Shown here piece after piece: positions 62 to 61,536 of a DNA stretch of 64,000 nucleotides. Under the pieces are notes generated by a model that saw nothing but the letters and a program-made list of their open reading frames with translations, did not search any database and was not told the origin of the DNA. Numbering within the stretch: the first letter of the stretch is position 1; each line of letters begins with the position of its first letter. Source of the DNA: Phoronis australis (taxonomy: Eukaryota; Animalia; Phoronida); the NCBI GenBank assembly GCA_002633005.1, contig NMRA01000385.1, forward strand, positions 189,839 to 253,838. The letters are read 5' to 3'. The position numbers and the translations under genes were made by a program.

Positions 62-116
62 GCTTCAGTCAAAGCTGTAGAAGACCTTTGTTTCGGAAAA
101 GATTTTGAATTCCACG
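62..116 (+). CDS. Exon a of giant gene (ASVKAVEDLCFGKDFEFH)
   Basis: Polypyrimidine tract + tgtag acceptor; gtaaga donor; ends phase 1, matching next exon. Confidence 0.75.
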
Positions 117-3100: not shown

Positions 3101-6100
3101 AAGTTTCATTATATCTGTGTGGTGTCTGACATTGGTCATTTTGCTATTTAAGTTTGCTTTTGTATCTTTGCAGTTCGTTGAGGTTTTTGTAAAATATGCC
3201 TTATAGGTGTCTCTTAAGAAGACACCTTGCTATTTTCAGACAGGCTACATTAAGTTTACTGGAAGTGGGACCCTATAGGAGGAATGTTTAAAACGGATCA
3301 TTTTTTCAATTGCTGTGCGTGATAAAGTTGGTGCATGTCAATGCTCAGCATCGCTCATGTTTTTGAAGAGAGCTTTCTCTGATTGGTTTAAGGTCATTGT
3401 TATGCTAACCATTTTTAAGATCATATGAATTCATGTTTTAACGTGGAAGACACTGGCACGTTTATTGATTGTTTTTTCGATACATTTAAGAGTGCTGAGA
3501 TTCTCATCACCCTGGCCTTCCACGACTTTCACGATGTTGTCCGCCAGCAGGCCTACAGAACGTATACTGAGCATCCCAAGCGGTACCAACTGACGGATGC
3601 ACAGAGAGACATTATACTAAGGTAAGTAAATTAGGTTGATGCTATATAGAAAACTGTGGATGCGGTAATTCATTATTCTGATCTGTGGTAAAGTCACAGA
3701 TGAGTTTGGAAACAAATTGCAGCTGCTGAAGGGATGGTGATTCTAGTCTCTTGTCAAATAAGTCACTTGACTTTGTGCAATGTAATGTAAAACTGAAGTT
3801 TTTACCAAACAATCTGCTAGTGAAAAATGACCCTGTTGTGAAGGTTTCTGTTAAGACACTGTAAGTAGCATTCTGTGTGCTTGCTTTGAATTTGGTCACA
3901 CCCAGAGGTTGGCTGAAACAATGTCACACCACGGTCGGTGCAGTAATTTTCAAAACAATTATTTGACGTTTTAGCTGATTTTTACTGTCAAAAAGCATTC
4001 TTGTCGAAATTTAGTCAGAGTGAAATGTTTTGTTATTACATCTAGTCACTGATTGTTTTTTGTCATGGCCTTGCACAGTAAGTTGTTGAGATTTTGCCAA
4101 AATTGGTGTAGCACGCCTGTCAAGATTTTGTTGCTACTTAATCAGCATTGAAACAGATTCTAGAGGAAAAGAAATGAATATGTTGTCCTTGTTTTGTGCA
4201 TCAAACCTTCATTAAATTTGTTCAGTTTGTTTTGAAAACTGCTGTTCAGTACTAATGCATTCAGGCACTGTTCAGGGATTGGCCACTTATCTGGTAGTGT
4301 TAGGATTTAGGATTATTACCTCAAACAACCACAGAGAAAAATATTCATCACAGAATCAATGGCAAAAAGAAACACCAGACTCGTTGTTATCTGGATCTTA
4401 ACTAGACCTCTTTCAACCTTTAGCAATGGTAACCTGTTATTTGTATCGTTTATTCTCTGAGGTTCACCTGACTTCCCTATCGGAAAACTTGATGTTTATA
4501 ATTTCATGTTTTAAATTAATCTTCTGAATTCTTTCTTTCAGACGCAATGCCTCTGCTGTGATACCACCCAATAGGGATAGACGAGGTATCCAAGACTTTT
4601 TGGACAAGGGACTTCATTGGGAAATTGAGATACCTGGGTTTTCGTGGACCAAGGTGATTGGCAGCACAGCCATTGGTGCATCATTTGGTGTCATTCTGAG
4701 AAACAAGATGTCTCTCGATCTAAGTAAGTACAATTCGTTGACAGTAAAACCTCAACAATATAGTGTACAAGTGAAATTGTGTTTTCCTACTTTTTCATAA
4801 AAGATATGTAGCTTCAAATTAATGCTTTACCATGTTGCTACGGTCAAAACTATTATGGAATAAAAATGTGTGCATTCACACAATGTTACAAGGACTTGAA
4901 AAAGGGAAAATGGGTGAGATAGCACTGTGACTGAGGTTTCAACAAAAAGGGCTGAGATGAGAACAAAGGACTGGGCTGATTTCTGCAACAATTTCACACA
5001 AGAAGCTAGCATGGTCAGGTAAATCACCTTTTATAAAAGGTGATATCTTGTGAAGTTTTGCATGATAATTCATTTTCAAGAGGTTCTCACTTCCACAGAA
5101 TGTATACCTGATTGATGGTATTCAGTTGACACCTTATCTGTGGTAACTTAATTGTAACAGAGTGGTACATTATTTTCTGAAGTGTTACAGGTGCAAAGTT
5201 TATTGACATCGAAGTGGCATCGATAATCATTCAGTTAGTACTGAATTTTGTCACGTGCTGTTTGTAACTTTTTGGAGGCGCAGACTATGTTTGATGTTTC
5301 AAAACCAGTAGAGAGCGTGTTTATGATTTGATGTCAAGCTCTTGTGACACAGTCTTTGCTTGATGTTTTAGAACCCCTTGAAGGCATGTTTATGATTGAC
5401 GTCTATGATACAGCCTATGCTGAGGCCAACCTTGGGATCCTCAACATCAAGTTTGACATGTTCCGCCTCCAAGTCTGTTTCCGTGGTTATATCCGGTACA
5501 ATCTTAATATGGCTAAGGTAATGAGGCGAATTCTTCATTGAGTACTCTAACACTCTTCTATAATCCCATAAGCTATAAACTTGTGAATAGAGACTATATG
5601 TCATTTTGAAATTCACATAATATATCAGATTTATTTGATCTTGGGCACATTGTATCAAAAATCGTAAGTCACTCGGTCATAGCTATGACTTTCTCAGCCA
5701 CGTTATTGCAAATGGAAGAGCAGAAATGTTACTACTGGCATAAATTTGATAATTGTTTATTTTCAAATGTAATTATGGTTGTTAGCAGTCAGGTTAATGT
5801 ACTATGTGCAAACTAAAGGCAGAGTTATTGGTTCATCTTTACATCCAGATTAATCCCTCATTATCTGAAAGAAACTAACTTTTGATTGACGCTGCATACT
5901 ACTATAAAGCTATATGACTCAGCTTGATCTTCAATCAGTTGAGAAGTGATTTTCTGTCTATCAAAGAATTGCTAGTTTGTTACTTTTAGAGACCGGCATG
6001 GTGAGTAAGATGACATGCTGTCGTAACTAGTCATCTTGTCAGTTATTGTCTCAGCAATAACTATCAGTTTCAACCAAGTCCAGAAATCACACTTACTTAG

Positions 6101-12100: not shown

Positions 12101-15100
12101 GTTAAATTACTTCAGTATGCTATAGACTACCCAGATGTAGTAGGGCAAAAGTGCAAATTGAAAAAAATGGTTGAGTATTAATTTGTTATTTTTATGAAAA
12201 ATTCTCTAATTCAAGCATGGGAAGATATGATCAATTTTAAATGAACTTTGTTGACAATTTACCATTTTTGATTCATGGTCCAAACTCTTTAATGTCGATG
12301 AAATTGCTTTATTTTCTTCATCTAGATAATAACGTGTTGTTTATTAATTTATGTTAGGGTCAACAACAAAAAGAGGTTGGCATGAAGTTCATCTCAGCTC
12401 TAAGTAACTTGCTGGAACCATTTGAATATCTGTTCAAGCCATTGTTTGACTTGTATAAATCTGTCCTGGCTGTCTACTACAACATAAAAGACATTATCGA
12501 CACCATAAAGACATAGTAAGTGTTTGCTGTTACTGATGGTGGTGGTAGTGGCAGTTGTGGTGAGAATGGCGATAATAACGGGGGCATTTGCGATGAACAT
12601 ATTATGTGCCATTGTTACCAAAAATTCACAAACAAAATTTTGGAAATGGTTATAAAAAGAATTTGATCTAAATAAAAATGTTGCGGAATGAAATTTAAGC
12701 AATTGAATTTTCCTAATTTTTCAATCCATTTTTGTTGTTTGATTTTAATCTTGCTGAATATGGTTTCTTTTTTGTTTTTTTATTGAAAAGTTGAATTTTT
12801 TCACAAATGGAATGTATTTTATAGAAATTAAAGCAACAGCAACTCACTCAATATCATTCAAACAAAGAAGTGATCAATTGCTAATTTGAGATATTCATCT
12901 GTAGCGTTACCAAAGCCAAAGACACATTTACTATGCTGTTTGGAGCCAAGTTTCACAAGAAGTTCCCCAGAACCAGACGTAGCGGGGCTGAAGATGAATA
13001 TGGAGATGGCAACTGGCCGTCCACTGCTAATAATTTCTATAGCAACAAAACTGAAGGCATTGGAATTATGCTTCTGGCTGATTCTGGTCAAAAGGTGAGT
13101 TAAACACCAGATTTTTATTTTTTTGTCTGAAGCACTAACTATTTTGTAGAGTCAGAAAATCATTTAAGATTTAATTGCCATTATGGTTTCTTGTTTCTCG
13201 TGAGTGTTTAGAAAATCAAGGAATCCTAAAATAGCTGTGTTAGGTTATCATGATTATGTAAGTCTTAATTGCCAACTGTTTCGCTTTTGGTGGGAATGTC
13301 GCGTGTTCTGCCACAGCATCTACCAGAGACAAGAGCCCAATGCTGGAGATTTACGGATGATGGTAACACATCAAATACAGATTGTAATACAAAGCCAATT
13401 CTTACTGGAGCCATGTTCCACAACTCACTCCACGTTAATTTCCTCTCTGGCAGGTTCCACCTTGTCCAAGCGGCTTGTTGCCTGAGTTGAACTGCTCTGG
13501 TCCTTCTAGCATCCTCTTCGTCTTTCCTTACGTCTTCCTGTACCATCTCCCTTCTCTGTACTTTTGATGCACTACTCCACTGTTGAAAATGGTAGGCTTC
13601 CAGTCCTTCGTGCCCAGCACAGATGTTTCCGACCATATTTCTGTTCAGCAACATGTTTTCTCCTTGATTTACGGCTACTAAGTGGCCATTTTCTTCCCGA
13701 TCGGGTCACAATTCTTGCCTCCCTTACTATAGCATCCCTTGCACTATTTACTGTTTGCACAAGTTTGCACTTAGCCATCTTGATCCCTTTTAATGAAGAT
13801 GACAATGTTAGCTGCAACTCTGCTGTTCTTCCGTACAGACTGACCTGAGTGAAATTTGGAAGAATCCCTAGCCATTTTTTAAACGCTTTGTTCACTTTTG
13901 GTTTTACTCCTTTCACAACAGAGACTGAAATTTCATAGAGTATATTAAATTCCCACATCAATCTGGGCAACAGGCCTGTTGGTAGACCTATGCCTTGAAT
14001 TTTACTGGTAATCCACTCTTCTCTATTCACTGTTAGCCACTGTTTAGTCTGAGCTTCAATCTGTAAGTTGTTGTTATGGTCGCTGAGCAGGTCATCGTAC
14101 CATTTGCCAAGATACTTGATTGTTCCCCACAATCAATGGCATCTGTTCACATTGAATCATCAGCCTTAATCCATTGACAATCTTTCTTGCCCTGATGACC
14201 ATGCTTTGTGACTTTCTTTGTTTAAATGTCATCATACTCCTGGTGGCTGCTTCTTCAAGTGCTGTTAAGGGCCTTTCATACCAACGTCGACGCGTCGATG
14301 GTTTGGGGAGTTGCGGTCAGTATGAACGCTTAACTATGGTCCTGGATCGCAGTTAACAGCTCCAGTTGACATCACAGTTAACAGGTGGATTTAAGACCGC
14401 AGCATCGACGCTGCGGTGTAGTATGAACGCTTAACTCCGGTCCAGTCGAAGTTATCGTCAAGTGGCACTGTTATCGTCAACAGTTACAAGGTAGTGTGAT
14501 CACTATTAGCTGCTTATATTTTGCTTTAATAATAACCAATCGATTTAAAGTTTAATGTCACTTAGCACATGTAAATATTTCCAAATTGAAACATTGAAAA
14601 AAATCTTAGCATGCAACGCTACCTTGCAGTAACTTCGATGACGACAGCGGCACCAACTGCTTACTTCGATGTTCATTAACTACCGAACCCAGTATGAACG
14701 GTCCAGTTAACTGCGCTGTTTTCGTCGACGCTCCAGACCGGAGTTAAGTCAATATGAAAGGGCCTTTAGACCCATCAATGCATGCACGTGTGTCACTGTT
14801 GTAACTGTACGGTCATCCATGTAAGCTTAAATCACATGCCTCGAAATTCCTGTCTCCAGTCTGAGGCCTCTGCTCTGACTTGTAACAAGTTGTTAGCTTT
14901 TTATTTATCAAGAAATTCATTCCCATGATGAAAAGGACTGAAGAAATCGTGCAATTCACCACAATCCTTCGTTTAATGGCGATCCATTCTGTAGTCCTGG
15001 ATCCCCATTGGTAAATCTCAGTTTGATTCCACTGATAATCGCTAATCATTCTCTGGATGCTGTCTGGTAGATGATAATAAATGCTTCACTTCTGGGTTGA

Positions 15101-45100: not shown

Positions 45101-47066
45101 CCGATATTGACCTTGGGGACATGATTGTGTCCATGAACTTTGAACTCTGTTTAAGCCATAATTGAAATGAACTCTACTACGATGACTGTTTTTTTTAACT
45201 GAGCTGTGCTTCTGATTGGCTTGATTTTTGCCTTGGAAAAACATTTAGGCTAGCATTAAAGCAATGGGATTTCGTATATTTTGCAATATTTAAGTATGGG
45301 AGAAAATGATTTTCAACTCAGCCTATCATGCTCAACAATAGTAGGGTTAGTGCTGTCCCTAGACTACACAGACCTCGGTTGGATGTTTACGTCTAGCTAT
45401 TGTTATTGGCAACTTTCGCGCCATTTTGGAATCTCAAAAAGGTTCGTTGCTTTAACTCTTTCACTGCAAAACATGCTTTTCAGCAACTTACCCCATTTCA
45501 GCGTTTTCCTGTTGGTCCCAACTTGTTTGATTCTATTGCCCAACAACAAGTTGGGAAGAGACCCCTGTAGCCAATATCTAACACGACTGGTTGACTCCAT
45601 TCTGACATCCATGGTACGAGGTCCAGCTCTCTTTTGTTCAATAATCGCTGTAATCTCCAATATGATTGTATCTAGCTTAAATTGAGTGGACTCTGCTGTT
45701 TAAAATAAAAGTTATGTTATAACATATTTGAACATAAACCAATAACATTTCTAAATTTCTTGTCAAATGCTGATCATGTCTTAAATTAGTTTTTGAATGA
45801 CCAAAATTGCCATGCTACTATTGAAGTTATGACAATATATTCTTACGTCCGAACATATCAATTTGCTCTGGGTTTGATTGTGTTCACAAGTGGTCTGTCA
45901 TAAGCCTGGTAGATAATTGGCTTGCCTGTTGTCATACCAAACAAAAGACTGTGGTGGGCAGTTAACAAAGGAGCTAGATGTCATCACTAGCTCACAACCT
46001 TCTTCATCTGGTAAAGTCATTGAACGGGAGAATGCCATCATGCATTCACTGCAAAGCACTCCAATTGGCATGTGGGGTATTTGCCTATTTTTACCTAACG
46101 AATCATAAATTTCGTGGCAGATAACTGTTAATTTATTGACATCATATCACAAGATGGCAAGTTTATGTAATCTTGAACAAAAATCAATGGCTTCCAGACT
46201 GTCCTTTCATGAGGGTCAGCCTGCTCAGAGAGGGGTGACTTCCCTTCCACACTGGCAGTTGTCCTCTGTTGATCATGACAAAGGCTTCCTAACCATAGCT
46301 CAATAGTGAGCCAACCACATAACGGTGTTTTACCGTTGCTACCAACTTGTTTGATTCTACAGCCCAACAACAAGTTGGGAAGATCACCCCTGTAGCCAAT
46401 ATCTTAACCACTAATTAATTCCACTCTGGAATTCAAGGTTGGAGGGCCGGCTCTCTTTTGTTCGATAATTGCTCTAATCTTCGATCAGATCGTATCAGCC
46501 TGACTGGGCTGTGCTGCTAAAAATGGAAATTAAGTTATAACATATCTGAACATAAACCAGTAGCATTTCTGAATTCCTTGTCAAATGCTGATCATATTTA
46601 GTTTTTGAATCACCAAAATCTCCCAACTACAACAGAAGTTGAGACAATCTACTCTGCCAGGTTTCAGTAACCCTTTGAAGCCCGGGAGATAATTTGCCTG
46701 CTTGTTGTCATATGGTACAAAAGACTGCTGGGCAGTTAACAAAGGAGCCAGATGTCATCCCGCGATCAGAATTTCTCACGTCTGGAAAAGTTGCGACAGA
46801 ACGCCATCATGAACTGCAAAAATCTCTTGTGCAGTATTACGTAATCATTGACAGGGCCATGATAAGACTATCAGACTAGAATTCACTTATGTAACCATTT
46901 AGGCATCTATTTTTAGTTCCACTCTTCGATTTGCAGTTTGACAGTTTGAACTTGTGGGTAGAGTGCATGATCATTATTGCTGACAAGAAATTCAGACGAG
47001 CATAAACAGCGATGTAACTGACTAATGAACAGAATCGACTCATCAAACTTTGTGATACAAAATAAT

Positions 47067-47097
<31 letters not shown>

Positions 47098-50000
47098 CAC
47101 ACACACACATATTTGTCGTGTGACCGATTATTTGTAATATCCATTGGTGCTCAATGAAGTTCACGTTAATAGTGCGCAAACCAAACACAAAACGACGCAA
47201 CTGCAGGTAGTATATGTAACCCTGGTTTTTTTCTGGGGCAGCACATACTTATGAGTCACCTGTCACTCAAACAGACTTGCGAAATAGCGTTGCAGCCAAT
47301 GATATACTTGTAAATAATGCCTTAGCTCGATTATGAATCGGGGAGTTTATTTGACAATTATAGAACTAATGCTTCATGCGACTGGGTATATTCAATCAAT
47401 AAAAGTTTGGAATTGTTATTCTGAAACATAGCAGCAGGCCAGATCACAATTTAACTGAGGTAGAGCCTACGCAGTTCTAATCACAGAACACCACCACACG
47501 CAAGTGACTGTTCACGTAGCCGGCTACAAGTGCGTTGGCTACTTAGACGCTAAATATGCTTTAATATGAAAGCAGTTCATCCCGATAATCTCAGCCCTTG
47601 CATTCACGGAACTGCTGTTGAAATTTTATCTGTTCTATGTTCACTCCGGCCTGATAACTGAATGCAGTTCGCTCGTGAATAAATTCAATTTCTATTTTAT
47701 GTGCTTAGGCAGATTTAGATCGATCCCGGCTGCGGGCCCAGGTTTCATTTTACAAATCACACGCCATGGGTGGTCAAACGATGCATGAAAGTGACGGGAC
47801 AGGTGGAAACAGAACAACTTCGACAAAAGATTAATAGGTTCACACTCTGTTTTAGATGGTTTCAAAATTCTTAAACTTGGTGCGAGAGAGCTGAAACATT
47901 TCGTGTAGAATACAAAATAGGCTAGTAAATAGAATGTGAGTAGAGAGACAAAGATATAGGGCCTATCTACAACATGAACGTTTTTAACTTTTATGGCACG
48001 ACAAACTTGGATGTGGATTTTTGCATTTCACAAAGTTTGTTTTGACATTGAACAAAATCGTTTTGCCGGTTTGACAAAGCAAAGGTCGGGGCGCCGGGAG
48101 GAAGGTAAGTTGGCCGCAGGTTCACTGAAGAAAATTGAAGTCGTGAACCCGAAATCTGACTTGGTAACACAACGGTCTCATCACCGGTGCTTATTAATTA
48201 GCTGTTAATCCAAATACAAAGCACGACACTGTGGTGATTATGCGATAGTCAGAGAATATACAGTTTATTTGGATAATGAAACCACGGTCAAGCTTGGCAA
48301 ATGTTTCGAGTCCGTAATTACTGCTGTCAAGGAAATGCGATCCAAATCAATAGCTATAGACTCCGAATCGACATGTCCGAAATTTCAAAATTTTTGTTAA
48401 ATTTGACCAATTCCCAAATTTCAGAATCAAAAAAATCAGTTTTGGGTTCAATGAAGTGTCCGAAATTTGTGAGACTGTCCTAAATTTGGGAATTTTTACA
48501 GTATGATTATTTTTGCATGATATGAATTGAAACCGTGTTTTAGATTTGTCAGGTTAGATTGTTTTGATGACAATTGTTATCTGCAGTACCCAAGTGTTGC
48601 ATTTTGAGTCGCAGTATATGTAAATAAAAGGTATAAGTCCATTATCGTTCTTTACAAGTTTATTTATAGAAAACAAATTACAAAAATTGAGAATTCATCC
48701 AAATAGTTTACGCACATGATAGTTAAAAAGAATGTTGTCTAGAAGTATCCACCATCCGAATCTGAGTTAAGGAAAATACTTTTCGTATTATTACTTCTCA
48801 ACTCCATCTTTGGAGTCTTAATCATTTAAGGATATTATACAAAGCTTCCCGTTTGGAGAAAAAAATTTTGTTTTGAAAATGCTTCCGAGTAAGTTCGGAT
48901 GTATTGTTACTCCTAAAAGTGAACTGCACTGTTACTCTCGATTGATTAAGCTTAGTAACAGGGAACAAAGAACTGTACCATCTGAAAGTAGACACGTCCT
49001 ACGTATTATTTTTTCTGGAGTATCCTTAATTCATACCAGTTATTATTGTCTCTCTAATCAGAAATTCTGAGACTCAGCTCAGATGATGCATTGTGTGGAC
49101 TGCGAACTTGAATTCAAAAATAAGTTTACCACTATTAGAATAGATGGCCTTTGCATGGTAAAAAACAAACCAAGTTTGAAAAATAATGTTCTGTTTTGGC
49201 CCCAGCTATTGAATTCATAAAACATCCTTTTGCTATGTACGTTTCAAATGTTTAAACTTCCAACAGCTGCCTTCTTCTATTACTTGGGATATTAGTGTGC
49301 CTCATTCTATTGTGGCAAAATGAAGTGTTATATTTATATGTATACAACTCTGCCAACTGAAATAGGCATAAGTAACTAACCTTGGCTGAAAGTAGTGCTT
49401 TCCCTGCTGATGCAGCTGGGGCTTTAGTAACAGGCAGAGGTATACCCTTTGTTACCCAAGCCTACAGTATAAGTCCACAATAGCCCTTAGTTATGAAAGT
49501 CAATGCAGGCACCATAGAGACAGCTGCACAAAATCAGATAATAGATAATTGGTCCGCAGTGCTTTGCCAGAATGGCTGGCTGTCATTTGTCTATATTTTA
49601 GCTCAAATATAAAAAATATGATTAGGTATTCAACAAGTTAAGTGTGTTTCAACCAAAACCATTTCCACTTACTCACTTAATTTGATTGGCATTGATAAAT
49701 GCAATTCTAAATTATTTAAAGAAATTTGGTGGTGAGTAAGTAATATGTTAATGTCTCCATCTCTTGCAGGGTTGTTGAACTGAGAAGAATGTCTGCAACA
49801 ACTAGCCTAAGCTTATTTTTTGTGTTCTAGAATTTGGAGCCGGTGGTTCTTTTGGAGCCTTCGTGAGTATCAAACTGTGTATAATGAGTATGCGTGTGGA
49901 GGCCACGGCCATCCCATGGTGTGGCGCCAAAGTCTGGGGCTCCGTCGCCATCTCGTTGGGAATCATCGAGGCTGGGGCCAAACTCATTGGATACCTCATC

Positions 50001-53000
50001 GAGACACAGTTCCCCAGTATTGCCAATGTTGGCTTTCAACAGTTCCCTCTTGATCTCAGGTAGATTACACGTACATCATAAATGATCATTAATCCCCTTC
50101 ACTTTTCTGCATTTTCACTACTCACAGCATCAGAATTACTCTGCATTATGATCCTCTCAACTGTTTCCTAATATCTTTTTGTTAACAGCCCGCTTTTCAG
50201 TGCATTGCTTTTCCAGCAAACTGCACTTCCTTTCTCATTAATCAAGTTAGTCTCAATTGTATTGTTTGGAACTCATTCTTTTCTCATGAGCAACACTTGC
50301 TTTTTGTCTGTCACAAGATATTGCTTGTTGTAGGTGCTTGAGACCTTGTCGTATGCACTTGATCCTCCATAAAGTTGATTTGTAAAATCTCATTAACATT
50401 TTATTATTACTTTAGTAAGCATCCAATTTGTCGGATCCTAAATACTATAAAAAATAAGTAAGGTGATTTTTTCTCAAATGAGGCTATCTTATTTAATCTG
50501 AAAGTGTGCGGAATGGTTCCGCACTTTTTTAATATCCACTTAGGGCCATAAAAACTGGTATAAAACAAATCTATACCTTACCCTAAACATGTTTACAATG
50601 TTACATTTTTATTTCCTCAATTATTTTTTTCTTAATTTGAAGTTCAATTTTTGCCATGTGGAATATTTCGCACATTTGCGGAATATTCTGCAAATCAGCG
50701 GAATATTCCGCAGATTTTGAGAAAAAATCGCCTTAAGTATATTTGGACGTTTGGATATTTCTCATCACACCAGCTAGTTTTGTAAATAACAAAAATGGCT
50801 GGCAATGACTGTTATGGCAGCCAGCTTACAAATTTGCATCAACATTTCTGATTACAAAGTGTCTGAAATTGTAGCCAGCTCCCAAATTTGCCTTTTTATT
50901 CTCAGTCATCTGAGAAGATGCTCTGATGATGAGTTCAGCTTCCACCCAACCATCCAATGATGGGGAATTCTATATTGTATTCATGAATAATTTTGACTGC
51001 TTGTTTCATTTTATTATGGTACACATGTTGCTCATTTTCAGGTAAAGAGTAATTCTAAAAAACGTCAGAATTTGGATGTCTCACAAATAGATGAATAGAT
51101 TCTGCTAAAACTTACAAATGCAAGTTGTGTGATTTTGCAATGTTCTTTTGATTACTGTCTTGATTATTCGGCTTTGCATAACTAAGATGATACTGAAAAT
51201 TGGGAAGGAAGAAATTCACAAAAAATTGAGAAGTTGCATGGATCAAAAGCAGAGAAGATCATTTGGAAAATCTGTTACTGCATTTTTGTGGTATCATTTT
51301 TAATGTGGAATTGAAAAAAATGTCATCTTATTGATACGCTTGTTTTTAAAGAAAACACGGTCAAGTAAGATATTTAATTTTGGATTTAGTGAGAAGTCAA
51401 ACTTTTTGTGTTTCTACTTTGAGAAAAATAATTTTGTAGATATTTGTATAAATGCGCATACTTGCTGAAGATGTTTTTCCACAACATTAAGATCCCAATC
51501 ATAAAAAACATTCCGTAAAAAGAAAGTTGGCTGCTTTTATTGGTGAAAAACTTGAACTGGAAGTCTTTTTTATCTATTCTCACTTGCTTACTATACAGTT
51601 CACTGTTATTTCCAGTGGAGGTATGGATTTGGTACTGACGCCATTACGAATAGAGCTGATGGCCTTTGTGGAAGTCCATCTATTTGTCACCTCCGAAATC
51701 CTCTGGGAGGGCTTCATCTGGAAATTTGCCACCAAACCAATCACAATGAACATGTTTACCATAGAGAAGGCAGAGGAGGACAAGTCGGCACCTCAGTTCC
51801 AGGGTGCTTCAAGTGCCACCAAAACAAGACGTTCTGGTCAACCTTGCAAGGTATGGTGCACTTTACTTCACACTAAAAAACAATGCACAGCATGTTGTGC
51901 TTCTTCCATAATATACTACTTCCTGTAGGTTGTCACTTACACGGTGAAATGAACAACCGGACAATTTTCGACTTATTTAAATGCGTCACATTTAGCTTTT
52001 GGTCAATTAAATGCCAAATTCTGTGGAAACTTGGCCGGAGTAATAAAGTGACTGGGCTAGGTACACAAAGCTTTTTTGTGAAACTTGAGTTGGCCCATTA
52101 ATTAAATCAATGTAAACAATGCTCTGGTGCTAAAAACACTGTGTTCACAGATGAATTCTATTTTTCAAAGCAATATGTTCTCGTTCCTATCTTTGACAAC
52201 ATACAAAATTGAATAAATACACAACAATTGTCGTTATTTACAGTCTTTATTCCACTCTGTTCATATAGTTGGAACAAAGTTTTACTCTACTCAACAGAAC
52301 ATTGGTGAAGCAACTGATCTGAAGAAACATGAATAAAAGACACATATTTCGAAACATACTTGTTTCATTCTCAAGTGGAAATAAAATGACTCGGTAATAC
52401 TTTTTGAATTAAAATTGGTTACAATAAATCCCTAGGAACTCCCCCGACTGCCATATTGCCTTGAAAACTGAAACTAACTCGTCGTGATAAGTAACTAAAT
52501 GAGCCAGGTCTGAGTGATGTGTCAGTGCCACCTACTGTACAAGACGGAAAATATTTACACAAAATACTGTTTACTCATCACAACGTCTTATTCTATTAAC
52601 AACAAAAATGACTAGCAGTTATAACTATTAGGGTGCCAAAATTCAAAATTCTAATTACAGAACCGCTTAAGGTAGGTGGATACACAAAAAAATTAATTTT
52701 GACTGTTTTTTACATTTTCATATCATCCTAATCTTTAATTCTTGATGCACAGTATACTGAAGAAAAATAAAATCATTCTGAAAATCCAAAGTTGTTTTTT
52801 TAGCTATATTTGACCAAGCCTCAGTAAGTCATACGGCTTGAGTGCTCACCAGCTCAGTGATTGGCAACTGGGGCGGAGCTTATATACAAGGACACTAACT
52901 CTAATCAAGCCCTGTCAACAAGCATTACGTAACCGGGCAATCGAGAGTGATGTACCAGCTGATATTGGTGTTGTAGCAAGACCAAGAATAAAACAATTCT

Positions 53001-57639: not shown

Positions 57640-57678
<39 letters not shown>

Positions 57679-58394
57679 ATATTTATATACTGTGTTTTGA
57701 TTTGTTTGATTTGATGTTGTCGTACTATTTTTTCCTGAAGGTGGTTTGTTTTGTAATACTTACATAATAACCCTCTCTTGCTTAGGTTGGCCAACTTACT
57801 GATCTGGATGTGACAGACACCCAGTTCGAACTGGAGGTGGATGCTGAGGATGAAAACAGTGAAGTGACAATGCATTATGCTGTGGGCACTTATAAAGGTG
57901 GAACAAACGTAATAGTAAGTTACCTGTTTTTCATTATCTCTTTTGATACAGCTATAATTATGAAAATATCTCTTTATGTATATTTGCTCATAAAAATGGA
58001 GCTTAGTGTAAAAGACCATTCACAATTATTGCCGTTNTCGTTATAGAAATAATGTCCATAAGTTGAAACACCTATGTATTTTATTAAATTTTACGTTTCA
58101 TAGTATATTTATTTAGTTTCCATGACAATTTACACGATAGCGTTTATGATTTTTAAATTTATTTGCCTTTGATGACTGATGTATAGTCGAAGTACCACTA
58201 CTGTTTTATTATGAAATGTTTTGTACAGAGTTTTATTATATATTTGCTCAATAATATGTGTTCGTGATGCCACTTACACTGGGCGATCTACTATATCAAC
58301 TACCATCTGATGAAAGACACTTGTGTAGACACTACGAAAGTTTGTTGTACAAACTATTTAAAGCCAAGAATAGCTTACTTTTCAATGAAACACA

Positions 58395-58430
<36 letters not shown>

Positions 58431-61400
58431 ATATTTACATACTGTGTTTTGATTTGTTTGATTTGATGTTGTCGTACTATTTTTTCCTGAAGGTGGTTTG
58501 TTTTGTAATACTTACATAATAACCTTCTCTTGCTTAGGTTGGCCAACTTACTGATCTGGATGTGACAGACACCCAGTTCGAACTGGAGGTGGATGCTGAG
58601 GATGAAAACAGTGAAGTGACAATGCATTATGCTGTGGGCACTTATAAAGGTGGAACCAATGTAATAGTAAGTTACCTGTTTTTCATAATCTCTTTTGATA
58701 CAGCTATAATTATGAAAATATCTCTTTATGTATATTTGCTCATAAAAATGGAGCTTAGTGTAAAAGACCATTCACAATTATTGCCGTTTTTACGAGTTTA
58801 AACATCATATCACGTTTTGGTCATAATAGACAGACCCGAAAAACCTCGCCTCATTTTTGGGTCGACGGAAATTCCTGAGAAAACCACAAACTCTTTTAGC
58901 CAGTAAAAACACGATTTTATGCCTAGTATACACTTTACCTGATGGCATTAAGTTCCATTGCCAGACCAGGTGTAATTTCCATGTTTATTGCCCCTATGGC
59001 CCAAATTTAAAGTCGTTGATAAAAGCATGTCACGTAAGTCCCGTTTAGACATCAGCTTTTGGTCCGGTGCAACTGACACGGAGCAAACTGACCCATGTCA
59101 AGTGGCCGTTTACACGCACAACTCACTAATTGTGGCAAGATGGAAATTGCAGGCTGGAAAGACTGGATCGCACATGTGCAGGTTTACAAATGACGATAGT
59201 TGCAGAGACAAAGAACCCATACGTAGGTCATTAGGCAAGCGCAGTAGAGATGATCCTTTCCGCCTTGTCCCAGTTTCGCGTTTAGACATATAATTGACAT
59301 GGACCAAGATGTTTGGGTGCAAATTGCTCTAACCTCACAAACGGGTGGCAAAATTTGTCTCCCCGGAGTCAGTTTACTCCGTGTCAGTCCCGTTTACACA
59401 CTGGAACAACTCATTCCATGTCAGCTGATCCGTGTCAACTTTTGAAGTGTAAACAGCACTTAAGTCCCTGTTACTCCTGAGATTATATCACAAACATTTC
59501 GCGTTATAGTACGCTTTAGGGAGAAGAGATCAAGGGCTGCTGCTATGATCTTGACACCATGAACGTTTTGAAAATGGTGAAATGGTCATCGGCTTTTATG
59601 TAACTACAGTTCTCTGATGGGACACTTTTGTAATGGTGTGGTGTGCAGTCATAGAAATCTGGTATGCTCACCAATAGTATCTGAAATTAATACTTTCAAT
59701 TACCGTATACTTTTCATACTTTCCAGAGGACAGGGTTCAGGGAAGTGTATCTTTTGCATGCTCGTGGAAATTTTATTGCGTATTATTTACATTTTTTTGA
59801 CTTGTCTTATTTTAGGGCTGGACTCAAATGGCTGCTACCAATGCTCTGGTAGAGGCCAAGATGCCTGGTGGCATACCTCTATACTTTACTGTGAGGGCCA
59901 AGAACGAACAGGGGATGGAGGCCCTGGCTCAGTGTCAGCTGGAGACATTTGATAACACTTTACCTGAGGGACGAGTAAATATGTTGTATTTGTACTCGGC
60001 TAACCCTAAGGTCATTCAGTAAGTATTGTGTGTACACTCAGCTAAACCCAGAGCCACTCAGAAAGTGTTGTTCAGCAGTTATCTCTGTCCATTTAAGTGG
60101 TGTCATTCACTATATCTATAGTCAACTAGCCATGAACTCTGCTGACACTGGGTCATTCATTATATCTTTATCGCATTATCTAGTTGGTGGAATCAGAATC
60201 TACACTATGCCTTTGAATTCATTCACCCTAAGTGTCGTGTGTTAAACATGGGCGGCGCACCATAGGGGCCTGGGGGGCTATAGCCCCCCCCTTATTTCAG
60301 TGCTGCACCACCCATGTTAAAACTGATCTGGTCACCACAATGGTGTTGCAAGGGTTATTGTCGACTGGGGTGGATGAAAATAGTGCCATTTCCCTTGTGG
60401 GTGCCTCCTATGTCTCACCCCTTAACCCCAAGTGATTCTATTTCTGTCACACTTTGTACTGTATATTAGACAAGTACTCTTGTTCATGCTATGGTCATCG
60501 AAATAATCAACCAGGGTGTGTTCCACTGACCCAAAATTCTCGGCAAAAAGCAAGAGTATTCACAACTAAAGGTGTATACTGTGATACTAGAGAAAATGAA
60601 GTGCTTAAGTTGGCGAGGTTAAAATGTTGAATTATATGGTATAGAATCCATTAATTATCGGTTAGAATTCACAGGTTCTGTTCATTAAGGTAATATTTCT
60701 TGTCACAAGTGCAATCTAATGCTTGGTGTCAATGGAACATAGCTCAGGATGAAAAGAAAGGTGCCCACCGGTTGCATGGTGCCTGTCATAGTTTGCCTAG
60801 TCAGTCACATGACCTGCAAGACAGAGACCACGGATTGAAAAATGATAATGAACTAAGATTTTGAAAATGTCCTTGTATAACTACACTCAGTATTGGCCAA
60901 CAACAAAATACCATTTCCACTTCATGCTGACCAGTTAGTCTTTAGCCACTCACAAGTTCAGTGTATTTGGGGCATTCAATCTTTTCATGAAATAAATTAT
61001 CGGCATTCTAGTGACACATTTTGTGAATTGCACATCAGACCAAGGGTACTTTATCAGTCCGTCAAAAGTTACTGGTGATTCTGCGAAGTCTCCTTTACTT
61101 TTCAATAAGTAAAACTCAGGAAAGTAATTCTTGAGTCTAATCATTTTACTGGAGAAATGTGTTTGATAATTTCATTAAGAACTTGAAATGTCCAATTAAT
61201 TCCATAACAGTGAAAAGTTAAATCTGCTTATTTTGTATGTTGTTTTCCTGCTAAGAGCTGCACATTATGCCGTCTCAATAAAAGGTATCAAAATCTCCAA
61301 CAAACGAATAATTAATATATGCCCTGCAGTAGTGGTCTTTTTAACACAATTCACGCAAAGAGAAAAGAGTATTGTTCTCTTTTTACAGGGGATCTGTAGT

Positions 61401-61536
61401 TGCCTTTGAAGACAGTCCAATCAAAATTGAAAACCTTGCTCATGGCCTTGGTAACAGTCCTGGTAAACAGAATGGTGACACTTACTTTAAGTGGGATTCA
61501 TTCAGTTTCAACACACCCACCCTTAACACTCTAGAG
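62..61536 (+). CDS. Internal part of a giant multi-exon gene: 27 exons, 4509 nt, ~1503 aa, open at both ends. Putative secreted lipoprotein/vitellogenin-like + degenerate M23/LECT2-like + SAP-like + FnIII-like multidomain protein
   Basis: Exons 62-116, 1389-1547, 2308-2504, 3491-3621, 4542-4723, 5372-5517, 8175-8312, 10019-10210, 11444-11586, 11728-11956, 12358-12515, 12905-13094, 17236-17363, 19335-19566, 20520-20650, 21461-21586, 22274-22419, 33547-33678, 39001-39216, 43110-43331, 44088-44233, 44703-44868, 49831-50059, 51616-51850, 57786-57914, 59816-60018, 61389-61536. All are AG/GT bounded, all 26 junction phases match, and there is no in-frame stop. Confidence 0.9.
1389..1547 (+). CDS. 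Exon b (GMDIVVPNRTNETATLRRACLTVGGMASSLNKTNPARAAQIVGHLTTWLERHN), alpha-helical
   Basis: ttcag acceptor, gtaaat donor, phase 1-1; overlaps ORF 1346..1591. Confidence 0.85.
2308..2504 (+). CDS. Exon c (DRTKRSADDMDYNYEYYTGMIMLYALSNAAHHTSLKLFKRYAAPNQGHSAWRRAALEAMKFYPHDE), lipoprotein alpha-helical-domain-like with furin site RTKR
   Basis: tttttcag acceptor, gtatga donor, phase 1-0; LYALSNA...RRAALEAM resembles the LxALGNA...RxAAxxAL helices of large lipid transfer proteins. Confidence 0.88.
2787..2890. mobile_element. ~104 bp hairpin MITE
   Basis: ~37 bp near-perfect inverted repeats aatggtctgatataacgtgcccgaattttgagaacca / tggttctcaaaatacgggcacattatatcagactatt. Confidence 0.75.
3491..3621 (+). 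CDS. Exon d (SAEILITLAFHDFHDVVRQQAYRTYTEHPKRYQLTDAQRDIIL)
   Basis: ttaag acceptor, gtaagt donor, phase 0-2; D...VRxxAY helix motif. Confidence 0.88.
4542..4723 (+). CDS. Exon e (RNASAVIPPNRDRRGIQDFLDKGLHWEIEIPGFSWTKVIGSTAIGASFGVILRNKMSLDL), furin-like site RDRR followed by beta strands
   Basis: ttctttcag acceptor, gtaagt donor, phase 2-1. Confidence 0.9.
5372..5517 (+). CDS. Exon f (KPLEGMFMIDVYDTAYAEANLGILNIKFDMFRLQVCFRGYIRYNLNMAK), amphipathic beta strands
   Basis: ttttag acceptor, gtaatg donor, phase 1-0. Confidence 0.9.
6295..8079 (-). mobile_element. Non-autonomous TIR DNA transposon (Tc1/mariner-pogo-like ends) with decayed HIRAN-like coding remnant, copy 1
   Basis: Termini ccgcattttccctaataac...gttattaggttgaatacag-TA; collinear with 34509-35909; minus-strand peptides IRGFYMYKEIWNLVEGE...PVDMYAVSV...HVPQKISKLVFFLEHGGSLNCTVMAKYR. 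Confidence 0.75.
7289..7364. mobile_element. 76 bp CATGG...CCCATG mini-element inserted in the TIR element
   Basis: Absent from the homologous site in copy 2 (ggccttactgagac, ~35257); flanked by cttag/cttac; related to 60247-60316. Confidence 0.7.
8175..8312 (+). CDS. Exon g (EYGINSVQDLVNIFDTLYDQFVTPIETAVDSFMGIFQSINKQGGFG), amphipathic helix
   Basis: ttttcag acceptor, gtaagt donor, phase 0-0. Confidence 0.9.
8551..8716 (+). repeat. Minisatellite, 18-20 bp unit (ttgcattgtttctggtca), ~9 copies
   Basis: Read directly; explains the repetitive ORF 8526..8759. Confidence 0.95.
10019..10210 (+). CDS. Exon h (ALFKSFAQTIIDLPKNIVKTAEALASWTGKTTNCLPWVTAVRKVVLRIKFFINDVKMDIENFVT)
   Basis: tttttatag acceptor, gtaatg donor, phase 0-0. 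Confidence 0.9.
11197..11372 (+). repeat. Tandem repeat, 60 bp unit x ~3
   Basis: attgagtcatgcttcttgcagg..gttttgactgtcaggactatgcat repeated in register on three consecutive lines. Confidence 0.95.
11444..11586 (+). CDS. Exon i (TILDAIQVTIPYAIEQFEKTGKQIVQSLGELISAPSSALEGLGQAFI)
   Basis: ttttcag acceptor, gtatgt donor, phase 0-2. Confidence 0.9.
11728..11956 (+). CDS. Exon j (VAMAMFMLMGAKKRVEINFPIKGGNLPYWMTPGEDLRALKTDMLYATKSVSNMLKIYATRPTPFKVGYGATGLKSM)
   Basis: ctaacccag acceptor, gtgagt donor, phase 2-0. Confidence 0.87.
12358..12515 (+). CDS. Exon k (GQQQKEVGMKFISALSNLLEPFEYLFKPLFDLYKSVLAVYYNIKDIIDTIKT), amphipathic helix
   Basis: gttag acceptor, gtaagt donor, phase 0-2; absent from the ORF track. 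Confidence 0.87.
12905..13094 (+). CDS. Exon l (YVTKAKDTFTMLFGAKFHKKFPRTRRSGAEDEYGDGNWPSTANNFYSNKTEGIGIMLLADSGQK), start of M23/LECT2-like fold
   Basis: ctgtag acceptor, gtgagt donor, phase 2-0; the ORF track shows a different frame. Confidence 0.87.
13265..15118 (-). mobile_element. Degenerate non-LTR retrotransposon, RLE type (HERO/NeSL-like), RT and post-RT region
   Basis: Frameshifted peptides TTEWIAIKRRIVVNCTISSVLFIMGMN, IKYLGKWYD, GLLPRLMW..YEIS, RAVQLRQQAAWTRWNLPERKLTWSELW...FVLQSVFDVLPSSVNLQHW. Confidence 0.85.
14268..14765. mobile_element. MITE (PIF/Harbinger- or Kolobok-like) nested in the LINE RT
   Basis: TIR agggcctttcata / tatgaaagggcct with TTA (or TTAA/TTTA) flanks; internal agtatgaacg repeats; LINE sequence resumes on both sides. 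Confidence 0.8.
16598..17115 (+). mobile_element. ~500 bp MITE family X, copy 1
   Basis: TIR attacggcgttttcccgtt / aatgggaaaacgctgtcat; internal palindrome cccaacttgtt...aacaagttggg; three more copies in the window. Confidence 0.8.
17236..17363 (+). CDS. Exon m (VVAPVTGVYYYEKLPRERIRIEPTKGSLKKYVIFLYNVKYLR), M23-like core
   Basis: ttttgtag acceptor, gtatgt donor, phase 0-2; G-x-x-V-x-A-P-x-x-G motif completed across the l/m junction. Confidence 0.87.
19335..19566 (+). CDS. Exon n (AVKVEGKPAKAGELIGHMETSPGDSQKNFMFVSVRKVPRSYRRMSFYLKVKELQKDGEWVDPTKYTERNSLFPTWVQ), M23-like C-terminal half
   Basis: acag acceptor, gtgagg donor, phase 2-0; G..xKAGELIG and VDPTKY are typical M23/LECT2 motifs. Confidence 0.87.
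19866..20200 (-). repeat. (TAA)n tract plus AT-rich low-complexity DNA, possibly the 3' tail of an antisense LINE
   Basis: (aat)n followed by ctttatt and a short hairpin (cttagccaatggctaag); no recognisable coding remnant. Confidence 0.4.
20520..20650 (+). CDS. Exon o (ECNDRSITILGVRIDAGSFADDKDSKAKTVQRDMQRSQDEFMN)
   Basis: ttcttccag acceptor, gttaaa donor, phase 0-2. Confidence 0.83.
21461..21586 (+). CDS. Exon p (YRAPEPPYRPANVDMRAQRPLSEQLKGVIDFVNDVKALLGG)
   Basis: tgtgcag acceptor, gtaagt donor, phase 2-2. Confidence 0.82.
22274..22419 (+). CDS. Exon q (DTSRIWKIAERFDVGHYTLRFVVDLFKKKKLVDRVDALTIIIKKLQVCA)
   Basis: atccag acceptor, gtgagc donor, phase 2-1. Confidence 0.82.
22533..23379 (-). 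mobile_element. Putative 3' LTR of the Gmr1-like element
   Basis: Inverted termini TGTCAGA...TCTGACA; purine tract (ttgaggaagg on the minus strand) just inside; no second copy in the window. Confidence 0.5.
23490..26640 (-). mobile_element. Decayed Gmr1-like Ty3/Gypsy pol with order PR-INT-RT-RNaseH
   Basis: From 5' to 3' on minus: PR (MRETGC/G.., YDLIIGN), HHCC (GGHLGVKKT..FYWPG..SCDICQ), rve, GPY (WRGPYEV), RT (VKKKDGSNRFCID, KMPFGLVNSAATF, VDDIL), RH (LQTDASDTGIG, NYSVIERECLAIV, TDHQPL, NVGADYLSR). Confidence 0.92.
28133..28301 (-). repeat. 3' LTR (169 bp) of the Gypsy element
   Basis: About 16 substitutions + 1 indel versus 32812-32981, counted by eye. Confidence 0.92.
30703..31159. mobile_element. 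hAT-like MITE inserted in the Gypsy RT
   Basis: 8 bp TSD tagacagg/tagacggg; TIR cagacctttatccag vs caggccttaatgcag; splits YTRL|PF..APSIFQR. Confidence 0.8.
32812..32981 (-). repeat. 5' LTR (170 bp) of the Gypsy element
   Basis: Direct repeat of 28133-28301; adjacent PBS-like tttgcgaagagga on the minus strand. Confidence 0.92.
32982..33493 (-). mobile_element. MITE family X, copy 2 (inverted); its other terminus lies at ~28116-28132, split off by the Gypsy insertion
   Basis: Reverse complement of 16598-17115; cattatggcattctccc | LTR element | ttcccgttaagtgac. Confidence 0.8.
33547..33678 (+). CDS. Exon r (DKFSVTNPQTWSPSTINRKLRKYGKDGYGYRGALINKLFQAIYG), SAP-motif-like
   Basis: Strong pyrimidine tract + ctgcag acceptor, gtatgt donor, phase 1-1; follows an ~11 kb TE-filled intron. 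Confidence 0.85.
33950..36660. repeat. Degenerate ~430-450 bp tandem-unit repeat (likely transposon-internal) rich in gcgccNcctagtggc motifs
   Basis: Recurrent blocks catctattagtg, ttttcgagtctgttttttggcg, tcaaccaaacc, ccctagtggcaattttag; interrupted by 34509-35909. Confidence 0.7.
34509..35909 (-). mobile_element. Non-autonomous TIR DNA transposon with HIRAN-like remnant, copy 2
   Basis: TA-ccgtattcgccgtaataac...gttattacggtgaatatgg-TA; removing it restores ggcagataggcatctat seen in sibling repeat units; minus peptides IRGIHV..YKEIWIPVE..NPVDKY. Confidence 0.85.
39001..39216 (+). CDS. Exon s (KCPHFLGGIMTGFNVYCEPHFDCMGLTCAVPVKYMCLQQWVRLDTRVDLCGPKLVFKVGSPPKQKSMEMTFA), Cys-rich beta module
   Basis: tcttttctag acceptor, gtgagt donor, phase 1-1. 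Confidence 0.88.
41239..42048. mobile_element. Probable non-autonomous TIR element
   Basis: Left cctaaagtcgtga (twice) is inverted at the right as tcatgactttagg; boundaries approximate. Confidence 0.45.
43110..43331 (+). CDS. Exon t (EKIKEIDVDVSTTMDAMVAKFQFNVTANSSHIFLIGKTQLCSSFMTTCIPDTFIFKNITFKIPPFAGLKCNINS)
   Basis: tatttcag acceptor, gtacgt donor, phase 1-1; three N-x-S/T sequons. Confidence 0.87.
44088..44233 (+). CDS. Exon u (GGESDNALNARGMQALPLVDLTTELILCGEKSSEIMRLMNEIRDAIASN)
   Basis: ctttcag acceptor, gtaaga donor, phase 1-0. Confidence 0.83.
44703..44868 (+). CDS. Exon v (MNMVEYLVTAVFGTAGEFPGGSEFCLSGQVPVPTKDITFFEYQWRFMAGPIPIKV)
   Basis: tctttctag acceptor, gtgagt donor, phase 0-1. 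Confidence 0.88.
45493..46042 (+). mobile_element. MITE family X, copy 3
   Basis: catttcagcgttttcctgttggtcccaacttg...gaacgggagaatgccatcatg; collinear with 16598-17115. Confidence 0.8.
46318..46811 (+). mobile_element. MITE family X, copy 4
   Basis: cataacggtgttttaccgttgctaccaacttg...gaacgccatcatg; has an internal deletion relative to the other copies. Confidence 0.8.
47066..47109 (+). repeat. (CA)n microsatellite
   Basis: Read directly. Confidence 0.95.
49831..50059 (+). CDS. Exon w (EFGAGGSFGAFVSIKLCIMSMRVEATAIPWCGAKVWGSVAISLGIIEAGAKLIGYLIETQFPSIANVGFQQFPLDL), Gly-rich amphipathic beta hairpins
   Basis: gttctag acceptor, gtagat donor, phase 1-2. Confidence 0.88.
50462..50732. mobile_element. 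~270 bp Kolobok-like MITE
   Basis: TIR ggtgattttttctcaaa / tttgagaaaaaatcgcc; flanks gtaa/ttaa; internal gcggaatattccgca palindromic repeats. Confidence 0.7.
51616..51850 (+). CDS. Exon x (GGMDLVLTPLRIELMAFVEVHLFVTSEILWEGFIWKFATKPITMNMFTIEKAEEDKSAPQFQGASSATKTRRSGQPCK)
   Basis: atttccag acceptor, gtatgg donor, phase 2-0. Confidence 0.88.
52671..54634. mobile_element. ~1.96 kb non-autonomous Kolobok-like DNA transposon
   Basis: TTAA-ggtaggtggatacac...gtgtatacacctacc-TTAA; no transposase ORF inside. Confidence 0.85.
54886..56615 (-). mobile_element. 3' fragment of a Gypsy element (RH end, integrase, putative 3' LTR ~54886-55070)
   Basis: NPADYLSRHP, LAHESHQGLVKTK, MDFAGP, LDNGPPFTS, YCATPHSTTGVAPAELLFG; purine tract next to a TG...CA segment. 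Confidence 0.85.
56620..57642 (+). mobile_element. 5'-truncated Penelope-like element: GIY-YIG endonuclease ORF (56758-57330) plus pseudo-LTR-like tail
   Basis: LIYQFNCPHNEC...YVGYTTCTLSRRLSMH...H...H...RLKILEALII; downstream MPLTLGDLLYQLP...YESLLYKLFKAKNSLLFNET resembles a re-started ORF 5' end; ends in (CA)n. Confidence 0.85.
57786..57914 (+). CDS. Exon y (VGQLTDLDVTDTQFELEVDAEDENSEVTMHYAVGTYKGGTNVI), N-terminal half of FnIII-like repeat
   Basis: gcttag acceptor, gtaagt donor, phase 0-0; D-x-x-S...Y-x-VGT-x-x-GG-x-x-V motif. Confidence 0.85.
58538..58666 (+). CDS. Second copy of exon y (identical peptide), probably the other allele duplicated by the assembly
   Basis: Same splice sites; only synonymous differences seen (aca aac vs acc aat); lies in the duplicated block after the N at 58037. 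Confidence 0.6.
59036..59462. mobile_element. PIF/Harbinger-like MITE
   Basis: Termini taagtcccgtttagac / gtgtaaacagcactta; subterminal inverted repeats actgacacggagcaaactgac / gtcagtttactccgtgtcagt. Confidence 0.6.
59816..60018 (+). CDS. Exon z (GWTQMAATNALVEAKMPGGIPLYFTVRAKNEQGMEALAQCQLETFDNTLPEGRVNMLYLYSANPKVI), C-terminal half of FnIII-like repeat
   Basis: attttag acceptor, gtaagt donor, phase 0-2; YFTVRAxNxxG is the FnIII F-strand signature, followed by D-x-T-x-P linker. Confidence 0.9.
60247..60316. mobile_element. 70 bp CATGGG...CCCATG mini-element with 5 bp direct flanks
   Basis: ttaaa-catgggcggcgca...tgcaccacccatg-ttaaa; internal hairpin ggggggctatagcccccc; related to 7289-7364. 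Confidence 0.7.
61389..61536 (+). CDS. Exon aa (GSVVAFEDSPIKIENLAHGLGNSPGKQNGDTYFKWDSFSFNTPTLNTLE), next FnIII-like unit; gene continues beyond window
   Basis: ttttacag acceptor, gtatgt donor, phase 2-0. Confidence 0.85.

Follow-up and report, generated by a model that had tools for sequence, protein, structure and literature searches.

This locus raises the question of whether a chain of exons scattered through a 64,000-nucleotide stretch of Phoronis australis DNA (hereafter the window) encodes one large protein and, if so, what such a protein might do. The window is AT-rich and of an animal type, and it contains introns. Splice sites were placed by eye and checked by script, resulting in a model of 27 exons on the + strand (62-61536). 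All 27 exon boundaries are AG/GT, and the single open frame comprises 1,518 codons without start or stop, open at both ends. An earlier note, made from the letters alone, had described 27 phase-matched exons with about 1503 uninterrupted codons, and this chain was confirmed with the slightly different codon count. In a plain six-frame translation, six of the seven protein motifs quoted in that note were found on the + strand, and the seventh crosses the 13094/17236 exon junction. The note had also called the protein hidden, which holds only for the track of open reading frames, as homologues are deposited at NCBI as uncharacterised proteins.

Stranded RNA reads carrying the same species label (runs X1-X3, tissue unspecified) were used to check the splice junctions of the model. 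The check covered 20 of the 26 junctions, in two stretches on either side of exons 14-20. At least six of the 20 covered junctions are present among the RNA joints listed. Two of these are clean GT..AG joints, 2504/3491 (7, 11 and 3 reads in X1, X2 and X3) and 60018/61389 (4 reads of X1), and four further junctions correspond to joints with bridging letters of the correct length. RNA reads lie on exon-bearing bins at few-fold depth, and the joint tables consist mostly of repeats. Bridging letters mismatched the window sequence (7 of 23 and 7 of 15 positions), so the reads may derive from a divergent allele or a paralogue. The gene is real and spliced, and either this gene or a close copy of it is transcribed.

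Relatives were collected by searching exon 23 with HMMER against 1.84 billion representatives, which gave 43 proteins with E values no higher than 0.001; among them were uncharacterised proteins from scallop, abalone and amphioxus, 4,640-5,244 aa long. A search with a scallop protein added 17 long records, mostly from molluscs. A fragment from Owenia matched as well. The product of the exon model aligned end to end, at 27-33% identity, with single uncharacterised proteins of 4,500-5,400 aa (scallops, clams, abalone, amphioxus); against the Argopecten protein P0052 the model aligned over its full length to residues 404-1901 (33%), and the others were similar. One colinear homologue lies on a 15.3-kb contig resembling a single transcript. 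When five homologues were used as tblastn queries, 19 of 28 exon positions were matched, all on the + strand and with order kept, and no match was found in the window outside the exon model. The whole-length alignment to single proteins, together with the ordered tblastn matches, points to a single gene of which the window holds the middle or middle-front third. Judged from these alignments, the window encodes the equivalents of residues ~400-1,900 of a giant, presumably extracellular protein.

Homologues of the same architecture, which the earlier note had suggested looking for, were found as single proteins in molluscs and amphioxus with the same domain order. XP_060074374 (Ylistrum), XP_067664253 (Haliotis) and XP_078620548 (Branchiostoma) belong to the same family, share the domain order across the whole window and are 28-31% identical to the window protein; their C-termini vary and they carry no functional names. 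A full-length match to an already characterised protein would have spoken against the earlier note, and all matches proved to be uncharacterised. Several paralogues occur per mollusc genome. In two quick, long-branched trees, of which the second lacked 6 of the 20 rows, the window protein fell outside the mollusc clade, beside amphioxus in one of them. Scanned one at a time in Pfam, 26 exons had no match above cut-off. Word-based searches run with exon 14 and with exon 26 against targets of at most 2,000 aa yielded 11 and 7 candidates but no homologue, and nothing meaningful came from PDB sequence searches using exons 12 and 14. A literature search, with most subscription journals and supplements outside its reach, found no description of the family or its architecture. 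The sequences are thus already in databases, unnamed, and the architecture appears undescribed in the searchable literature.

In order to place the parts of the protein, profiles were built from homologues alone and located on the window protein (E 1e-13 to 1e-64; Table 1). The folded models are those of mollusc homologues, 29-33% identical to the window protein.

Table 1. Features of the exon chain in the window, with predicted parts named after homologue profiles and models
Feature	Position	Strand	Exon coordinates	Evidence or remark
Head part (exons up to 3621)	62..3621	+		Homologue profile aa 3-183, E 5.8e-45; RNA joint 2504/3491
Furin-type motif 1, RTKR, alpha-helical domain loop	2310..2321	+		R-x-K/R-R within 25 residues in 17/20 rows
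Exons 5-6, predicted amphipathic beta-sheet 1	4542..5517	+	4542-4723, 5372-5517	Position of the MTP/lipovitellin C-sheet; profile E 1.1e-40
Furin-type motif 2, RDRR, after the helical domain and ahead of sheet 1	4573..4584	+		20/20 rows
Exons 7-11, predicted long amphipathic helices	8175..12515	+	8175-8312, 10019-10210, 11444-11586, 11728-11956, 12358-12515	Profile E 2.3e-53
Exons 12-15, M23/LECT2-like fold	12905..20650	+	12905-13094, 17236-17363, 19335-19566, 20520-20650	Profile E 1.8e-38
Exons 16-18, linker and small helical region with SAP-like helix pair at its end	21461..33678	+	21461-21586, 22274-22419, 33547-33678	Profile E 2.6e-13
Exons 19-20, cysteine-rich beta domain, no named family	39001..43331	+	39001-39216, 43110-43331	Profile E 1.1e-24
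Exons 21-24, two helices and predicted amphipathic beta-sheet 2	44043..51850	+	44043-44233, 44703-44868, 49831-50059, 51616-51850	Profile E 1.7e-64
Exons 25-27, first FnIII-like unit and region before PAN	57786..61536	+	57786-57914, 59816-60018, 61389-61536	Profile E 6e-54; RNA joint 60018/61389
Second copy of exon 25	58538..58666	+		Lies in a near-identical 750-base duplication spanning the single N at 58037; excluded from the model

According to the profiles, the window covers only the second half of the head's alpha-helical domain. Exon 3 by itself matched Vitellogenin_N at E 0.09 in Pfam, and among 11 scanned homologues this family was above the Pfam cut-off in five (best E 6.6e-13, profile 90-545). 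The model of an abalone homologue (residues 20-696, pLDDT 71) comprises an N-terminal beta-barrel and an alpha-helical domain. Using Foldseek, this head was matched to MTP (E 4.5e-17) and lipovitellin (E 2.1e-15) and also to bee vitellogenin and apoB. Its Z scores were about 19-21 against MTP, lipovitellin (1lsh, 20.4) and apoB (9bd8, 21.5), which are tied, and the next, unrelated helical repeats followed at Z 14. Hydrophobic N-termini were seen by eye in P0052, P0057 and P0048. The large-lipid-transfer-protein head proposed in the earlier note is thus supported as a fold in models of homologues.

Behind the head, the strands of sheet 1 were predicted at low confidence (pLDDT under 65). Exons 7-11 encode ~290 residues of a predicted bundle (helices 103-400 of the homologue model, pLDDT ~55-70), and exons 21-24 encode long strands in a region that terminates in a dibasic KTRR. 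When the window protein was compared with 100 shuffles, the strand moment reached z 3.3 in sheet 1 and z 5.0 in sheet 2, and the helical moment z 8.1 in the bundle; amphipathic helices and sheets are found in many folds without lipid binding. The distance from sheet 1 to sheet 2 is ~870 residues, with the helical bundle between. Sheet 2 weakly resembles the lipid-binding domain (A-sheet) of MTP, with MTP_lip_bd at E 2.8e-4 to 0.017 in six homologous records, below the Pfam cut-off. The model of P0052 residues 600-1729 (pLDDT 66.6, pTM 0.37) contains sheet 1, a long bundle, the M23 fold, the small helical region, the cysteine-rich beta domain and sheet 2. With this middle model MTP was the top row in Foldseek (E 1.7e-4), and in two runs of structural re-alignment MTP was absent among the best 50 rows of each. 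Docking of sheet 2 onto the P0052 head, carried out without an alignment, gave a score of 0.15 and a mark of 0.34, values that speak neither for nor against a pairing. The bundle also resembled four-helix bundles, alpha-pore-forming toxins among them (Z 9-12); this was discounted as generic, because a common arrangement of helices is enough for such Z scores.

The motifs of M23 metallopeptidases are given as HxxxD and HxH in the accessible text of PMC9662197. In the window these correspond to 13050-13064 and 19420-19428, and none of the four catalytic-motif residues is present, leaving the copy without zinc ligands and without the catalytic histidine. Of 21 homologue rows, 3 keep the first His, 19 the Asp and 20 the last His, and none keeps the catalytic His. 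All three zinc ligands are kept in three records of one amphioxus gene, with the catalytic His lost. The window copy has also lost two cysteines conserved in 18/21 and 21/21 homologues. Homologue P0026 matched Peptidase_M23 in Pfam (E 2.3e-9) and DipM in a PDB sequence search (E 0.009), and the ESM Atlas gave M23 leads only, below 0.9. Among 48,161 chains, human LECT2 (5b0h) ranked first for the M23 part of the homologue model (Z 13.3, rmsd 2.2 over 113), with LytM domains within ~1-2 Z of it (LECT2/LytM range Z 11-13). These values support the presence of the M23 fold in the homologue model and, by its residues, the domain is read as enzyme-dead and as no M23 peptidase. The dead M23/LECT2-like domain proposed in the earlier note was therefore recovered, and both folds that it expected from structure prediction, lipovitellin-like and M23-like, are present in homologue models.

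LECT2 and the degenerate LytM factors EnvC and DipM likewise have the M23 fold without the catalytic histidine, and degenerate M23 folds have mostly protein-protein interaction roles in the part of PMC9662197 that is accessible. LECT2, as described in the accessible part of PMC9258709, is a free 16-kDa zinc-binding protein, whereas the LECT2-like domain of the window is internal and has no zinc ligand left. As a separate observation, in the region 8175-20650 (residues 103-545 of the homologue model) a dead LytM-type domain comes after long helices, a layout shared with bacterial EnvC. EnvC was third in Foldseek with the P0052 middle model (E 3.6e-4), and this likeness is probably convergence.

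A SAP-like part had also been proposed, and of this only a weak signal was obtained: two homologues matched SAP (PF02037), one at E 0.0065 (16.5 bits) and the other at E 0.016 (15.3 bits), with the Pfam cut-off at 23.9 bits, and Pfam SAP gave nothing on the window exon alone. Exons 19-20 retain all 8 family-conserved cysteines, and their domain has nine strands in the homologue model (pLDDT ~70-89). The FnIII-like repeat stalk of the earlier note holds for the homologues, with at least 11-15 units in five full-length proteins; the window has only the first, divergent unit and the beginning of the region behind it, and the gene runs past the window. Pfam on exons 25-27 alone gave no match. Downstream, homologues carry PAN, fn3 and cadherin/Big_9-like units (Pfam fn3 up to E 1.7e-12).

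EGF-like repeats and a C-terminal membrane helix were present in 12 of 28 records (11 of the 12 bivalve; several records are incomplete), and 7 of these 12 end in a D/N/Y-V tail, which resembles a PDZ-binding motif. The amphioxus C-terminus consists of Sushi and C-type lectin domains. No membrane helix was found in the four abalone records or in the amphioxus records, and the abalone records also showed no Sushi/lectin end. The description of the protein as secreted is only part of the picture, since many homologues end in a membrane helix. In addition to the two furin-type motifs in Table 1, a third site just before the stalk was found within 25 residues in 13 of 21 rows, where the window sequence has no strict match. 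From the motifs themselves, we infer furin cleavage at these positions.

The large-lipid-transfer superfamily is given as apoB, apolipophorin, vitellogenin and MTP in the accessible text of PMC10799875 and PMC12214520. In the former, vitellogenin is defined by LPD_N, DUF1943 and VWD, apoB and apolipophorin by LPD_N and DUF1081, and MTP by the lipid-transfer module alone. No VWD match was found in 24 Pfam-scanned proteins or 18 precomputed domain lists, DUF1081 was likewise not matched in Pfam scans or precomputed domain lists, and Vit_open_b-sht reached only E 0.6. On domain content, the family has the superfamily head yet stands outside the domain definitions of vitellogenin, apolipoprotein and MTP. 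It shares with MTP (6i7s) the N-terminal beta-barrel and alpha-helical domain, followed by two sheets, the second weakly matching MTP_lip_bd. MTP itself, in the accessible text of PMC6717300, has ~880 residues, adjacent A- and C-sheets and PDI as partner, whereas in the family the sheets are separated and a 3,000-residue stalk lies behind them, in homologues of 4,500-5,400 residues. Vitellogenin/lipovitellin (PF01347, DUF1943 and VWD) shares the head fold (1lsh, Z 20.4) and probable proteolytic processing with the family, but the family is without VWD and carries inserted M23-like, SAP-like and cysteine-rich domains, a stalk and, in bivalves, a membrane helix. With apoB and apolipophorin II-I it shares the head (9bd8, Z 21.5), a similar size and amphipathic sheets and helices; unlike these it is without DUF1081, and its amphipathic part comprises only ~600 residues, the rest being FnIII-, PAN-, cadherin- and EGF-like modules. 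New here are the two amphipathic sheets set ~870 residues apart around a helical bundle, the membrane-helix end in 12 of 28 records and the Sushi and C-type lectin end in amphioxus.

The reading that we prefer, with a probability of roughly 0.4, is that of a furin-processed, stalk-mounted protein capturing lipid or lipid-coated particles outside the cell. It is supported by the end-to-end colinearity, the Foldseek and Z scores of the head, the MTP top row, the weak MTP_lip_bd matches of sheet 2, the amphipathic z values, the furin motifs, the loss of the catalytic His, the 11-15 or more repeat units and the membrane helix in 12 of 28 records. Against it stand the sub-threshold MTP likeness of sheet 2, with MTP missing among the 50 best rows of both re-alignments, the low confidence of sheet 1 and of the middle model, the occurrence of amphipathic elements in folds that bind no lipid, the distance of the window protein from the folded homologues, the abalone and amphioxus records without a membrane helix, the position of the window protein outside the mollusc clade and the loose match at the third furin site. 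The protein would be secreted and cleaved two or three times by furin, and the fragments would remain associated as in lipovitellin. At most, the head would work as MTP or lipovitellin does, and the dead M23 domain as LECT2 or EnvC. Sheets 1 and 2 would be A/C-type sheets which, split by the ~870-residue insert, fold back into an MTP-like lipid pocket, and the amphipathic bundle would add lipid-facing surface. The dead LECT2-like domain may serve as a docking module for protein or glycan, and the stalk would keep the head off the cell surface or matrix. Anchoring would be by the membrane helix in bivalves and probably by the lectin/Sushi domains in amphioxus. A bolder extension, which we regard as rather doubtful, is that the family is an unrecognised large-lipid-transfer branch, with a split-sheet MTP-like pocket on a long stalk which, in bivalves, is fixed to the plasma membrane. 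In that case a lipid carrier would have become a receptor at the surface or an arm for taking up lipid, and the internal M23 domain, still zinc-binding in amphioxus, would be the invertebrate counterpart of vertebrate LECT2. If a conserved family of molluscs, amphioxus and this animal puts the superfamily head on a stalk, often membrane-anchored, the fold would have a wider role, and the family would be a testable candidate for lipid uptake or sensing at invertebrate surfaces. The origin of LECT2 is touched as well, since a large invertebrate protein here contains a LECT2-like domain whose zinc ligands are lost step by step (three, two, none).

Among the alternatives, a soluble lipoprotein or yolk-type carrier similar to apoB or apolipophorin, whose head furin would free into body fluid, leaving the stalk a role in secretion or storage only, is unlikely. 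A furin-type site directly before the stalk in 13 of 21 rows and the abalone and amphioxus records without a membrane helix speak for it, as does the order of head, sheet, amphipathic helices and sheet, which we take to recall apoB. This reading is opposed by the failure of VWD and DUF1081 to match in Pfam scans and precomputed lists, by the few-fold exon depth in the three RNA runs (tissue unspecified), which is low for a bulk carrier, and by the conservation of a 3,000-residue stalk from molluscs to amphioxus. We would also give low odds to an immune sensor or clotting scaffold, in which microbial lipids or cell-wall glycan would be bound by the head together with the dead M23 domain, effectors would be recruited through the PAN, lectin and Sushi domains, and host lipid transport would not be the function. 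According to the accessible parts of the respective papers, the bacterial M23 fold binds peptidoglycan (PMC9662197), LECT2 acts on macrophages via CD209 (PMC9258709) and some large lipid transfer proteins have immune and clotting roles (PMC12214520); the Sushi and C-type lectin ends in amphioxus and the several paralogues per mollusc genome also fit. However, the M23-like domain of the window is minus all zinc ligands and two conserved cysteines, and this loss makes a conserved glycan groove doubtful.

A structural surface, mucus or adhesion protein, with the lipoprotein fold now an oligomerising cap without lipid binding, is improbable, although FnIII-, cadherin- and EGF-like modules make up most of the length and are joined by a membrane helix, and although P0032, which has no head-profile match, puts 13 tandem cysteine-rich domains ahead of sheet 2 and the stalk. 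Against it, the whole head and both amphipathic sheets are present with their order kept in molluscs, amphioxus and this gene. An artefact, either of two adjacent genes joined by eye or of a decayed copy, is very improbable. The RNA-checked stretches do not reach the six junctions of exons 14-20, one of which spans an 11-kb intron full of retroelement remains, and RNA reads mismatch the window at some letters, but the 1,518 codons are stop-free, colinear with single proteins of several independent annotations and covered by ordered exon matches.

Several relatives deserve separate mention. Family members P0056 and P0062 were automatically named 'Delta-like protein 1' and 'CRB-like protein', which is misleading and probably because of their EGF repeats. 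Two Logan/ENA records were also found: P0035, a distant homologue colinear from the helical region to the stalk, and P0066, in which HEAT-like helices occur together with matches to sheet 1 (weak, 830-898) and sheet 2 (6299-6433) that lie 5,400 residues apart. In P0032 (Branchiostoma belcheri), the 13 tandem cysteine-rich beta domains occupy residues 215-2850 before sheet 2 and the stalk, a layout which suggests that modules have been shuffled in related proteins.

Near-identical tandem duplications flank both single Ns of the window (57300-58036/58038-58788 and 62110-62559/62561-63000) and are likely to reflect joined contigs or overlapping haplotypes. The extra copy of exon 25 is most likely such an assembly overlap; its reading as a real repeat was rejected because homologues carry the unit once and the duplication is near-identical across a single N. 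The 11-kb intron holds two broken LTR-retrotransposon-type elements on the - strand (28148-32985 and ~23600-26900), with protease, RT, RNase H and integrase fragments, the former with terminal direct repeats of 158 bases that are 89% identical. A 204-codon open reading frame with a GIY-YIG domain (56716-57330, + strand, E 5e-5) is probably a Penelope-like element remnant. Intronic repeats at 2785-2893, 6936-7140, 16154-16770 and 52600-54640 carry many RNA reads on both strands, far above the exons.
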